Assembly (NCBI GenBank): GCA_016840465.1
Contig: JAEOSH010000064.1
Location: forward strand, 1 to 11,205
Direction of reading: 5' to 3'
DNA from: Candidatus Baldrarchaeum yapensis
GTDB taxonomy: Archaea; Asgardarchaeota; Baldrarchaeia; Baldrarchaeales; Baldrarchaeaceae
DNA length: 11,205 nt
How positions within the stretch are numbered: position 1 is the first letter of the stretch; each line of letters opens with the position of its first letter. The position numbers and the translations under genes are program-made. The notes beneath the pieces are model-generated. The model searched no databases, had not been told where the DNA came from, and was given only the letters and a program-made list of their open reading frames with translations. Shown here piece by piece: positions 4,286 to 7,526 of this stretch.

Positions 4286-4640
4286 TTAAGGCCTAGCGAA
4301 ACCCGTGACGTAGTCGCACTTTATAAGGAATATCACCGCCTCTGCAACCTCCTCCGGCCTGCCGAATCTTCTCATCGGAACCCTACTCAGTATTACCTTT
4401 TTTCTCTCCTCGGGGAGCCCGCGTATCGTGTCGGTCTCTATCGGACCGGGGGCCACCGCGGTCACCGTTATGTTGTACCTCAGCAGCTCCTGAGCAAGCG
4501 AGAACGTCATACCTATAAGCCCTGCCTTGGAAGCAGCATAGTGCGGCCCGACGGTGCCTCCCATCTTCCCGGCAACCGATGATATGTTTATTATCTTCCC
4601 GTTCTGACTCTCCGCCACTTTCACAACTTTTGATGCATGT
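4286..4640 (-). pseudogene. Internal fragment of a FabG-like short-chain dehydrogenase/reductase
   Basis: GKIINISSVAG, YAASK, NITVTAVAPGPIETD, RVPMRRFGRPEEVAEAVIFL and DYVTG are present. The N-terminal GxxxGxG Rossmann half is absent (the ORF-track N-terminus is read-through of the structured element). After DYVTG the frame ends FARP* instead of the usual '..VNGG..' tail. Confidence 0.85.
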
Positions 4641-4783
4641 GTGGTGGAGAGCCTTCCCGTCTCGGGGTCCATCGACGGGCTTTCGCGGGGAGCGGTGCTC
4701 CGTACATCCATCTGACCCTTCGCTCCGCCCTTTCGGGCTTCCCTCCCTCTCATCGCCCCTCCCACATCCCGGGCGGAGCCCGC
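4625..4783 (-). ncRNA. Candidate structured ncRNA resembling a stand-alone TnpB omega/reRNA (IS200/IS605 right-end derived)
   Basis: 96/140 GC over 4641-4780 (hand count). Helices: 9-bp GCUCCGCCC/GGGCGGAGC, GCCC-GAAA-GGGC, GGAGC-ACC-GCUCC, CCCGUC/GACGGG, plus a GGGUC/GACCC pseudoknot into the last loop. A TATA box lies at the correct distance upstream. The core GATGTACGGAGCACCGCTCCCCGCGAAAGCCC..GATG..GGGAAGGCT resembles archaeal tnpB 3'-end motifs as I recall them (not searched). The 3' boundary is uncertain. Confidence 0.5.
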
Positions 4784-4800
4784 TTAACACAACAGAAGTC

Positions 4801-4816
4801 CTTTATAAGGGTTTTG
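4801..4816 (-). promoter_or_regulatory. BRE/TATA promoter driving the structured RNA
   Basis: The minus strand reads CAAAACC-CTTATAAAG. The predicted TSS at ~4783-4778 coincides with the start of the GC-rich element. Confidence 0.6.
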
Positions 4817-4886
4817 AGGTTGCAAAGGTGCATGAGGGCAACAAATGCAACACTATGCGTTTCTGCCCCTAGGTACTTGCGGTTTT

Positions 4887-4921
4887 CATTGGAGGTCGCT
4901 GTTGTGACCTCCCTTTCAATG
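4887..4921. other. Stable stem-loop in intergenic DNA
   Basis: GGAGGTCGC-TGTT-GTGACCTCC (4891-4912; 9 bp with one G-U), extendable by CATTG/CAATG (4887-4891 / 4917-4921). Confidence 0.45.
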
Positions 4922-4999
4922 CTGTTGGAATTATGGGTCGAGTGCGTCTTTTTGTCCCAATATTTGCCACGGCGTTATTTTGGCCGGAGTGCTCCTTCT

Positions 5000-5012
5000 A
5001 AACGTTTAAATA
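5000..5012 (+). promoter_or_regulatory. BRE/TATA promoter of the membrane protein gene
   Basis: AAACG-TTTAAATA, 45 nt upstream of ATG 5057. Confidence 0.6.
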
Positions 5013-5056
5013 CTTCTTATTAGGAGGTATAGAAAGGAGTCGAAAGAGGGTTTCTG

Positions 5057-5497
5057 ATGGGCGAAGAAGAAACCCCGCGAGGAGCGATACTACTGGGCTT
5101 CTTGTTTCTACTGACGGGGTTCTTTCTGATATCTGCGGGAGCGTCTAGGATTTCGGAGTACGTTCAGAGATTGATGGAAAGGGTTCCGGGGCACGAACAC
5201 ATGGTTGCAACGCTGGGCGGTACCAGTAGCTATATGTTGATCCTATATGGCGTTTTGGCGGTGGCGTTGGCAATAGGTTTCTTCCAGAAGCAGGAGTGGG
5301 CGGCTGGGGGAGGATTTGTACTGCTAATAATAGCTCTTGCGTCCGGAGTTCTATCGATTTGGGAGCAGGTCGTTGCGTTCGGGGGATTTGAAGCGCTCAT
5401 AGCGGAGGCCCCACTATCGACGCTCATTTCAATGGCAGCATGCGCAATAATGGCGCTCATGCTTGTGTACATGGTTGTTGCGAAAGGGTGGAGGTAG
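5057..5497 (+). CDS. Hypothetical integral membrane protein (~4 TM helices)
   Basis: 146 aa with hydrophobic segments AILLGFLFLLTGFFLISAG, MLILYGVLAVALAIGFF, WAAGGGFVLLIIALASGVLSIW and LISMAACAIMALMLVYMVV. It has its own promoter. Confidence 0.8.
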   Translation: MGEEETPRGAILLGFLFLLTGFFLISAGASRISEYVQRLMERVPGHEHMVATLGGTSSYMLILYGVLAVALAIGFFQKQEWAAGGGFVLLIIALASGVLSIWEQVVAFGGFEALIAEAPLSTLISMAACAIMALMLVYMVVAKGWR

Positions 5498-5604: not shown

Positions 5605-7047
5605 ATGGACGTTTCACCTATGGAGCCAAGTGTACTGGATAAAATATTTGAACCAAGGCGTATCGCCGTGATTGGAACCTCACGGGATCGAGGGTTCTTC
5701 TGGGTGAGATGTTTCTTGGAAATAGGGTTTTCAGGCGAAATCTTTCCAGTAAACCCAAAGGAAAAAGAAGTGTTGGGGCTGAGGTGCTACCCGAGCGTTA
5801 GGGACATACCTTGCGAAATAGACTTTTCAGTGATAGCCATCCCCGCCCCTAAGGTTCCGGACGTCCTGAGAGACAGTGCCGAGAAGGGCGCGAAGCTTGC
5901 AACGATATTTTCATCTGGTTTTTCGGAGACCGGAACCCGTGAGGGTATCGAACTTGAGAGGAAGATAAGGAACATCGTGGAGGAGTACGGGATAAGGGTG
6001 CTGGGGCCGAATTGCATGGGAGTTTACATACCGTCAAGGGGCTTGAGTTTCAGGCCCGATTTTCCCAAGGAGAGCGGGACTGTGGGCTTTATCTCACAAA
6101 GTGGAGGCAATGCCATCGGCGTTGTCCTATACGGGGAGAGCTGGGGAGTGAGGTTTTCCAAGGTATTTTCCTATGGAAATGGGGTAGATTTAGAGTGTAC
6201 CGAACTACTAGAATACCTAGGATGGGATCCGGAGACCGAAGTGGTAGGAATCTATGTGGAGGGTGTCAGAGACGGCAAGAAGTTTCTCTCTGTAGCAAGA
6301 AGGATCGCACAAGAGAAACCCTTAGTTGTATGGAAGGGCGGTGTTACTTCTGCTGGTTCTAAGGCTGCTGCGTCCCATACCGGTGCACTTGCGGGATCTG
6401 CGGAGATCTGGAATGCTGTTCTTAAACAGTGCAATGCCGTTGCCGTTTCAAGCATGGATGAAATGGTCGACATGTTGAAAGTGTTCACACAGGTGCCTGA
6501 GATTCGAGGTCGGAGGATCAGCCTTATTTCTATCAGTGGAGGTGCTAGCGTTGTTAACACGGATCTCGCGGAGAAGGGTGGTTTTGTGGTAGAAGAATTT
6601 CCTCAAGACTTGCAGGAGAAATTCCGTAGCAAGATACAACCAGTGGGGGTCAGTGTTAGGAATCCGATAGACCTTGCAGGGTCATTTTACGACTACGAGG
6701 CCTTGGAGTACATAATGGAGGAGATAAAGCCCCTGATAGACGTGTTGGTATTTGATTTGCAGATAATTTACCCGATACTCTGGAGGCGGATGAGAGAATT
6801 CGACTATCTTAGTACTCTGACAAAACTGGTCATTGAGGGATGCAAATCATACAGGGATGATGACAAGGTGTTCGTCGTAATTCTTCCTGTGATGCATTAT
6901 GAGAGAGAGTGGATTGATGTGAAGAATAAGTTGATCGCGGAGGGAGTGCCGGTATTTCAATCAACCGATCGCGCGATAAATGCGCTTGCAAAGGCCTATA
7001 GGTATTACAGGCGTTTAGAGAAATTAAAGGGCAATGTTGCACGGTAA
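5605..7047 (+). CDS. CoA-binding protein, NDP-forming acyl-CoA synthetase (ACD) alpha-subunit-like
   Basis: IAVIGTS..., FPVNP, RVLGPNCMG, ISQSGG, GN..D, KGG.T..G..AAASHTG (phospho-His), second ligase domain ISGG and NPIDL. No ATP-grasp domain. Start may be 5596, 5605 or 5620. Confidence 0.9.
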   Translation: MDVSPMEPSVLDKIFEPRRIAVIGTSRDRGFFWVRCFLEIGFSGEIFPVNPKEKEVLGLRCYPSVRDIPCEIDFSVIAIPAPKVPDVLRDSAEKGAKLATIFSSGFSETGTREGIELERKIRNIVEEYGIRVLGPNCMGVYIPSRGLSFRPDFPKESGTVGFISQSGGNAIGVVLYGESWGVRFSKVFSYGNGVDLECTELLEYLGWDPETEVVGIYVEGVRDGKKFLSVARRIAQEKPLVVWKGGVTSAGSKAAASHTGALAGSAEIWNAVLKQCNAVAVSSMDEMVDMLKVFTQVPEIRGRRISLISISGGASVVNTDLAEKGGFVVEEFPQDLQEKFRSKIQPVGVSVRNPIDLAGSFYDYEALEYIMEEIKPLIDVLVFDLQIIYPILWRRMREFDYLSTLTKLVIEGCKSYRDDDKVFVVILPVMHYEREWIDVKNKLIAEGVPVFQSTDRAINALAKAYRYYRRLEKLKGNVAR

Positions 7048-7370
7048 CTTTTCTTAGGATTTGGCTAGAAATCGTTATTCCTTTTCAATTTCCGTATTTG
7101 TATTACATGCACATAATTATGCAATTTACTGCTCCTGCGTGTCCAAAATTTTGCGCGAGTTTCCCATCTGAAATTAGAGGACGATCCGTAACTGTCAGAA
7201 CGTACAAGAAGAGCTATAAAAAATAGTAATTCACAAATTTATTGGAGCTGAATTGCTCAAACCGGCGAAGTATTAATCATTATCATAAATTTAGCAGTAA
7301 GTATCGACATTGGGAAATTTATCAATTTGTCTCTACATTTTTGAATGACGAGTTATGTGATGTGAAAGTG

Positions 7371-7526
7371 ATGGTTGAAATGGCAAGAAAAATTTTGATT
7401 TCTGAGGAGGCATTAAGAAAGATAGCCAAGGGGAAGATAAAGTACACGGGAAAGAAAATCAAGCCGGGGAGATGGATACTTAAGGAAAAAATTGGTGATT
7501 TCATTGGTAGTAAGAGTAAGGATTAG
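7371..7526 (+). CDS. Small basic hypothetical protein (51 aa)
   Basis: MVEMARKILISEEALRKIAKGKIKYTGKKIKPGRWILKEKIGDFIGSKSKD. Lys/AGA-rich coding-like composition, upstream TTTATCAA box at ~7318, and an overlap with the start of the next gene. No family recognised. Confidence 0.35.
   Translation: MVEMARKILISEEALRKIAKGKIKYTGKKIKPGRWILKEKIGDFIGSKSKD

Follow-up and report, generated by a model that had tools for sequence, protein, structure and literature searches.

A protein-less IS607-family element carrying a probable TnpB omegaRNA scaffold behind a TATA-like box in an Asgard archaeon

The window analysed here, the entire 11,205-nt contig C28 of Candidatus Baldrarchaeum yapensis, carries on its minus strand, at 4869-4599, a repeat that we interpret, with a probability of about 0.8, as a non-autonomous IS607-family MITE bearing a TnpB omegaRNA scaffold; from its sequence we infer that both mobility and guide use would occur in trans. 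The element retains a left end (LE) with a TATA box, a hairpin formed by tnpB zinc-finger codons, and the last ~115 nt of tnpB plus the right end (RE), and the hairpin and this 3' portion together appear to make up the scaffold. It would have arisen from an element with a serine-recombinase tnpA and a tnpB through loss of both genes. This interpretation is built on a repeat family, its homology to full-length elements, conserved and covarying helices, the sense strand of the folded RNA, and junctions with a GG dinucleotide and a G-run. The core of the original prediction, a TnpB guide-RNA scaffold with no nuclease gene of its own behind a promoter-like TATA box, is upheld by alignment to ten full-length tnpB 3' ends. 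The features discussed below are collected in Table 1.

Table 1. Features of the element and its right flank in the window
Feature	Position	Strand	Evidence or remark
Whole repeat unit (mini-IS607 / MITE)	4599..4869	-	13 near-full copies, unrelated flanks
Left end (LE): G-run with the GG core, followed by CAGAAACGYATAGTGTTGCATT...	4822..4869	-	matches LE of L009 (C96), L031, L037
BRE/TATA-like box AAAACCCTTATAAAG	4801..4815	-	kept in every copy of this genome and in the G003 copy (68% identical)
Predicted transcription start zone, 20-26 nt past the TATA box, at the foot of stem 1	4779..4785	-	archaeal TATA-to-start spacing
Stem 1: outer 4779-4771/4730-4722, inner 4764-4761/4737-4734	4722..4779	-	homologous to L009:2278-2335
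Deletion junction: lacks ~100 nt present in full-length tnpB (RuvC-III codons)	4713..4721	-	MITE compared with ten full-length 3' ends
Helix H2: 4704-4700 with 4688-4684; loop holds CCGCUC (4695-4690)	4684..4704	-	95% paired
Helix H3: 4679-4674 with 4661-4656	4656..4679	-	95% paired, 3 compensated pairs
Terminal hairpin H4: 4653-4641 with 4618-4606, 13 bp	4606..4653	-	96% paired, 7 compensated pairs
Right-end terminus GAACGG; final GG = IS607 core dinucleotide	4599..4604	-	invariant in 24/25 sequences
Predicted guide segment GAAGAUAAUAAACAUAUCAU, first codons of the SDR fragment	4579..4598	-	each copy has a different sequence past the conserved end
C-terminal half of a short-chain dehydrogenase (SDR) gene, truncated at the element's right end	4286..4600	-	Pfam adh_short, profile positions 129-192/195, E 4e-20

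A BLASTN search of the organism's own genome (2.27 Mb in 100 contigs) returned at least 13 near-full copies of the repeat at 75-96% identity, together with some fragments; the window copy is one of ~14. Their flanks are unrelated, and the alignments break off at the same two points. Because similarity ends at the G-run and right after ...GAGAGTCAGAACGG, the unit is 271 bp long, running from GGGGCAGAAACG... to ...GAGAGTCAGAACGG. The island, first described as an orphan, is one of many mobilised copies and not a lone cassette, and its proposed limits of 4625 and 4816 had cut off the left end, the 3' arm of the terminal hairpin and the true 3' boundary. Several of the copies are located at contig ends, and those on C75 and C76 are visibly decayed. 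A covariance model of the 3' domain found 21 sites in the same genome. The GC content of 4625-4790 was measured at 64%, somewhat below the 69% first given for the island, in a window of 48.7%. Within the repeat, the only protein similarity is to a C-terminal tnpB remnant (TnpB residues 341-402), and neither tnpA nor further tnpB similarity was found elsewhere in the window, in agreement with the earlier statement that no tnpA or tnpB ORF lies nearby. The copies at C39 and C69 have an identical 25-nt left flank (C39:1-25 and C69:3441-3465), which reflects either a duplicated segment or another repeat. Contig C82, which also carries a full mini-element, holds a 48-nt LE-only match (C82:5702-5749, 98% identical) followed by a weak omegaRNA-model hit up to position 5958; the segment C82:5702-5958 is another short derivative.

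The same assembly contains one full-length tnpB that matches the repeat, on contig C96 (locus L009). There, a tnpA-tnpB element with left end GGGCTGAAACGTATAGTGTTGCATT and right end ...GCGGAGAGTCAGAACGG encodes a TnpA of 204 aa with HTH_17 and Resolvase domains, i.e. a serine recombinase, and a TnpB of 436 aa (Cas12f1-like_TNB, E 1e-21), an arrangement characteristic of IS607. Over its final 115 nt, the repeat shares 91% identity with the C96 tnpB 3' end plus RE, and the two left ends align over 31 nt at 87%. The repeat interior keeps a remnant of the TnpB zinc-finger codons (CPxCG...SPNG), while the ~100 nt with the RuvC-III codons of full-length elements are absent between this remnant and the 3' domain. 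Consequently, the repeat has the attributes of a MITE: its LE and RE correspond by homology to those of a serine-recombinase element, it is present in multiple copies at unrelated sites, and it has no coding capacity of its own. The parent therefore belongs to the IS607 family, with a serine-recombinase TnpA rather than a Y1 enzyme and with a GG core dinucleotide, and not to IS200/IS605 as had been proposed. The proposal that the nuclease is encoded elsewhere was borne out by the compatible tnpB on C96. Nothing pointed to a nuclease-dead, TldR-like partner; the cognate C96 TnpB retains the RuvC D, E and D motifs together with the zinc finger.

The C96 TnpB family, with the same 3' end, extends at 51-81% amino-acid identity to MAGs of Bathyarchaeia, Archaeoglobaceae, Thermoproteota, Thermococcus, Undinarchaeota, Methanobacteriota and Asgard archaea. 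The C96 tnpB itself (L009:1323-2633) has no stop codon inside the element, so that its ORF crosses the right end and gains 35 flank-encoded residues, and a frame that stays open past the right end was also seen in several other members of the family.

To examine the RNA structure, base pairs were counted in an alignment of the final 128 nt from 15 MITE-type copies and 10 full-length tnpB 3' ends, 25 sequences drawn from many archaeal phyla. Three helices, H2, H3 and H4, were paired in 95-96% of cells and contained 12 compensated pairs in total, two of them in H2 (at one pair, CG in 15 sequences and GC in 9). The covariation score of the whole tested structure was 0.213, compared to 0.115 in shuffles, and none of 500 shuffles reached 0.213; slid controls were 32-46% paired. 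The loops of H4 vary freely between MITE subfamilies while its arms remain paired. Most compensations stem from comparing the MITEs with full-length elements and with the copy from G003, a different genus; within the own-genome MITE copies, most of the structure could simply be inherited.

Stem 1, a hairpin of 9-13 bp, derives from the zinc-finger codons. Its arms read GCUCCGCCC/GGGCGGAGC in the organism's own MITEs, CUCGCUC/GAGCGAG in the G003 MITE, and, for example, CCGCCUCUGCCCG/UGGGCGGAGGCGG and CCCUGUGCCC/GGGCACAGGG in full-length elements. Pairing is thus retained despite differing sequences in all three groups, and stem 1 covaries. G-U pairs are frequent, with UG in 22 sequences at one pair and GU in 16 at another. 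Since these would be A.C on the opposite strand, the folded RNA is the one in tnpB sense, which corresponds to the minus strand of the window. Single-sequence folding of both strands gave no signal above shuffles (z = +0.39), so that the evidence for structure comes from comparison and not from energy. An alternative at H2 suggested by RNAalifold (GCGG with loop CCGU, and CCG with the terminal CGG) was rejected because the full-length elements carry GGGG/CCCC, which is compatible with H2 only.

The outer stem 1 and H3 had both been foreseen, and both are present and backed by compensatory changes. A predicted hairpin at 4738-4727 is also present. Another, at 4701-4689, can be formed by the sequence but competes with the better supported H2, and the 13-bp terminal hairpin had been overlooked.

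The pseudoknot originally proposed between GGGUC and GACCC fared less well. Both segments exist (GGGTC at 4718-4714, GACCC at 4669-4665), but only 51% of cells are paired, there is no convincing compensation, and we rejected it. In its place, the H2-loop sequence CCGUUC can pair with the 3'-terminal GAACGG in 93% of cells. This pairing is never compensated because GAACGG is invariant, and we put forward a pseudoknot between the H2 loop (4695-4690) and the 3' terminus as a hypothesis. The RNA end had been placed near 4625, a position that falls in the loop of the terminal hairpin; the scaffold terminates at 4599. The window copy has an A.C mismatch in H2 (4703/4685), an A.C mismatch in H4 (4645/4614) and a C.A mismatch in the pairing of the H2 loop with the 3' end. 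With three mispaired positions across the helices and the possible pseudoknot, this copy may be weakened.

A BRE-TATA was correctly located in the original prediction: the BRE-like AAAAC lies at 4815-4811 and TTATAAAG at 4808-4801. The box also occurs in the 68%-identical copy of another genus of the same order (G003, L014). It is homologous to TTTTATAAAG, which the full-length elements L031 and L037 carry immediately 5' of the tnpA ATG, and was therefore retained from the parent's left end, not invented. Of the two origins considered for the promoter, kept or gained, only the first thus applies to this promoter-like box. The deletion places it 20-26 nt ahead of stem 1. Regions upstream of tRNA genes in the same genome show a TATA pattern of the AAxTTTTTAAA type, roughly similar to the MITE box; we take this resemblance as suggestive, not as proof, that the box is a promoter. 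In relatives, tnpB-less derivatives (L067, L068) have a strong TATA box, AAACATTTATATG, ahead of a trimmed scaffold.

Among 151 sampled genomes of the phylum, the covariance model of the 3' domain matched 19, with up to 13 matches per genome, and many of the matched loci lack tnpB. Several relative genomes have 10-13 hits each. Designs of the same omegaRNA 3' domain that have no tnpB were seen at L067 (G001:C110), L068 (G004:C291), L070, L072, L075 and L091 (G063, G069, G087). One such design combines the LE GGGCAGTAACATAGAGTG and the strong TATA box AAACATTTATATG with an insertion of ~45 nt in the H2 loop.

The junctions of the repeat are those of an IS607 element. At the LE they read NNGG-GG-CAGAAAC in 11 of 13 copies, with GAGG and AAGG in the other two and TGGG for the C96 element; at the RE, all copies read CAGAAC-GG. 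The GG core dinucleotide is therefore found at both junctions, and there are neither inverted terminal repeats nor a longer target duplication. For the copy on C92, keeping GGGG between the flanks yields the longest junction-spanning ORF (192 aa), which we regard as weak support because Pfam assigns no family to either half of the interrupted ORF. Previous work on IS607 elements described a strict GG core, a TGGG target that is also the TAM, scarless donor joints, and restoration of the element after TnpB cuts the donor joint (10.1101/2023.11.20.567912); G-rich TAMs have been reported for IS607 TnpBs (PMC11061315). The repeat junctions fit the published GG core, TGGG target/TAM and G-rich TAMs.

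As expected of an omegaRNA that ends at a transposon boundary with a variable flank beyond it, the copies diverge immediately after GAACGG. Because the scaffold ends at 4599, the predicted guide starts at 4598, inside a broken SDR gene. Each copy's 16-nt guide is unique in its own genome at 0 mismatches and matches its own flank only. Near matches to the AT-rich guide of the window copy were rejected as targets, as they have no G-run TAM.

These features suggest how the element might operate. TnpA from the full-length C96 copy would move it in trans via GG core sites, and the TATA box would drive a transcript of ~200 nt that starts near 4781 and runs through the scaffold into the flank. TnpB supplied in trans would load this RNA, with the ~16-20 nt after 4599 serving as guide. 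It would then cut the GGGG-flanked empty site left by excision, and recombination would restore the element; such cutting and restoration would correspond to the published IS605/IS607 retention model.

The window copy landed in, or beside a rearrangement of, an SDR gene. The SDR fragment forms the right flank and is co-oriented with the element. The sequence on the left (4871-5056) is not SDR; because it is not the other half of the gene, this is not a simple insertion. In the copy on C80, the left flank (C80:246-300) consists of the first 18 SDR codons, while the RE of the window copy adjoins the SDR part from ~codon 124 of what seems to be the same gene; the ~105 codons of the middle are nowhere in the assembly. 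Contig C80 stops 28 nt past the last base that distinguishes its copy from that in the window. From these arrangements, the split could reflect recombination after two insertions, a deletion next to the element, strain variants or a chimeric contig. At 4286-4765 (-), the tnpB-derived frame is in frame with the SDR fragment and yields a chimeric ORF of 159 aa (…TGRLSTTHASKVVKVAESQNG-KIINISS…), which is probably accidental. Elsewhere in the window, 7100-7400 is AT-rich (GC down to 0.31) and has no long ORF; it lies between an acetyl-CoA synthetase-like gene and the next genes.

A resemblance to HgcC/sotRNA-type RNAs had also been suggested. HgcC and the sotRNAs were described from tnpB genes of the IS200/IS605/IS1341 type, not from IS607. 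Like HgcC and other archaeal tnpB 3'-end RNAs, the element is a GC-rich structured RNA from an archaeal tnpB 3' end, but cmscan finds no HgcC match in it, even at E up to 10. Across the whole window, Rfam covariance models gave no relevant match at gathering score, and for 4300-5100 at E up to 10 they returned only an unrelated lncRNA model outside the element. HgcC, IS605-orfB, RAGATH-18, H/ACA and C/D sRNA were rejected accordingly, as none matched even at this permissive cutoff, and we conclude that the element is not HgcC.

We weighed three other explanations. The element might be an inert relic, that is, a real IS607-derived MITE that has ceased, in the window copy or across the family, to be transcribed or used by TnpB, with helices and TATA box simply inherited. 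The three mismatches of the window copy at otherwise paired positions, the visible decay of the C75 and C76 copies, and the 86-96% identity of the within-genome copies, which makes them poor as independent evidence, would all agree with this. Yet stem 1 has changed in a compensatory manner between the organism's own MITEs and the G003 MITE, where coding constraint is absent, the TATA box is still there in a copy that is 68% identical overall, and the arms of H4 stay paired between MITE subfamilies whose loops are free to differ. We therefore consider a relic unlikely, while giving it appreciable weight.

It is far less probable that we are dealing with a single domesticated host guide cassette of the IS200/IS605 type, HgcC/sotRNA-like, working with TnpB or a TldR-like protein. 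The scaffold is TnpB-derived and promoter-led, as such a cassette would be; however, the copy census contradicts it, since the repeat is multi-copy and has transposon ends, and the parent has a serine recombinase instead of a Y1 TnpA. The lack of an Rfam HgcC hit, guides that match only their own flanks, and the catalytic motifs kept by the cognate TnpB argue in the same direction. We assign a still slighter chance to the idea that the inverted repeats are only DNA sites for the TnpA recombinase, with no RNA involved. IS607 ends must indeed include sites that TnpA binds, and the terminal CAGAAC-GG does not vary, but IS607 TnpA acts on double-stranded DNA and does not need hairpins (10.1101/2023.11.20.567912). 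Moreover, the G-U pairs are strand-specific, and the helices fall within the 3' part of tnpB, from which TnpB omegaRNAs are known to arise. A MITE with an omegaRNA scaffold thus remains our preferred reading.

Protein-less omegaRNA elements are already published as a type, and the window element is a clear example of it, not a new principle. Minimal PATE-like IS200/IS605 elements of Geobacillus stearothermophilus (Meers et al., 10.1101/2023.03.14.532601) are protein-less but retain both ends; an omegaRNA is often encoded as well, which the TnpB of another element must use. The window element shares with them the lack of proteins, both ends and the omegaRNA; in contrast, PATEs are moved by a Y1 (HUH) TnpA via single-stranded hairpin ends, whereas the window element belongs to the serine-recombinase IS607 family with GG core junctions. 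With CboIStron (10.1101/2023.11.20.567912) and ISFba1 (PMC11061315) it has in common a serine-recombinase parent, the GG core, a G-rich target/TAM at the LE, and an omegaRNA that overlaps the tnpB 3' end plus RE. It differs from both in that the two genes are deleted, there is no RAGATH-18 or other Rfam match, and there is no group I intron. For OMEGA systems, standalone effector-less omegaRNA loci that work in trans have been described (Altae-Tran et al. 2021, as reported in PMC10691335). As far as that account goes, the likeness lies in mobilised scaffold copies that have no nuclease or transposase gene, with an effector-encoding copy in the same genome; the window element differs in that it comes from an Asgard archaeon and has a scaffold of IS607/TnpB type to which an archaeal TATA box is directly joined, and its use in trans is putative.

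Taken further, several of the Asgard IS607 mini-elements may have formed independently, each with the TATA box brought in front of a trimmed scaffold. One TnpB could then be served by at least a dozen self-expressed guides, the mini-elements would be hyperparasites that borrow both transposase and nuclease, and the scaffold lacking ~100 nt would be a natural minimal omegaRNA of a thermophilic TnpB clade. We regard this larger picture as possible rather than probable. For this genome, the finding accounts for the GC-rich islands that look like a structured RNA with its own promoter, as well as for the contig breaks there. It provides a clean archaeal (Asgard) IS607 case of an effector-less, promoter-led omegaRNA element and a covariance-supported scaffold model made up of stem 1, H2, H3, H4 and the terminal GAACGG. 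The naturally shortened scaffold, from a thermophilic TnpB family that extends across many archaeal phyla, could guide the design of minimal omegaRNAs.
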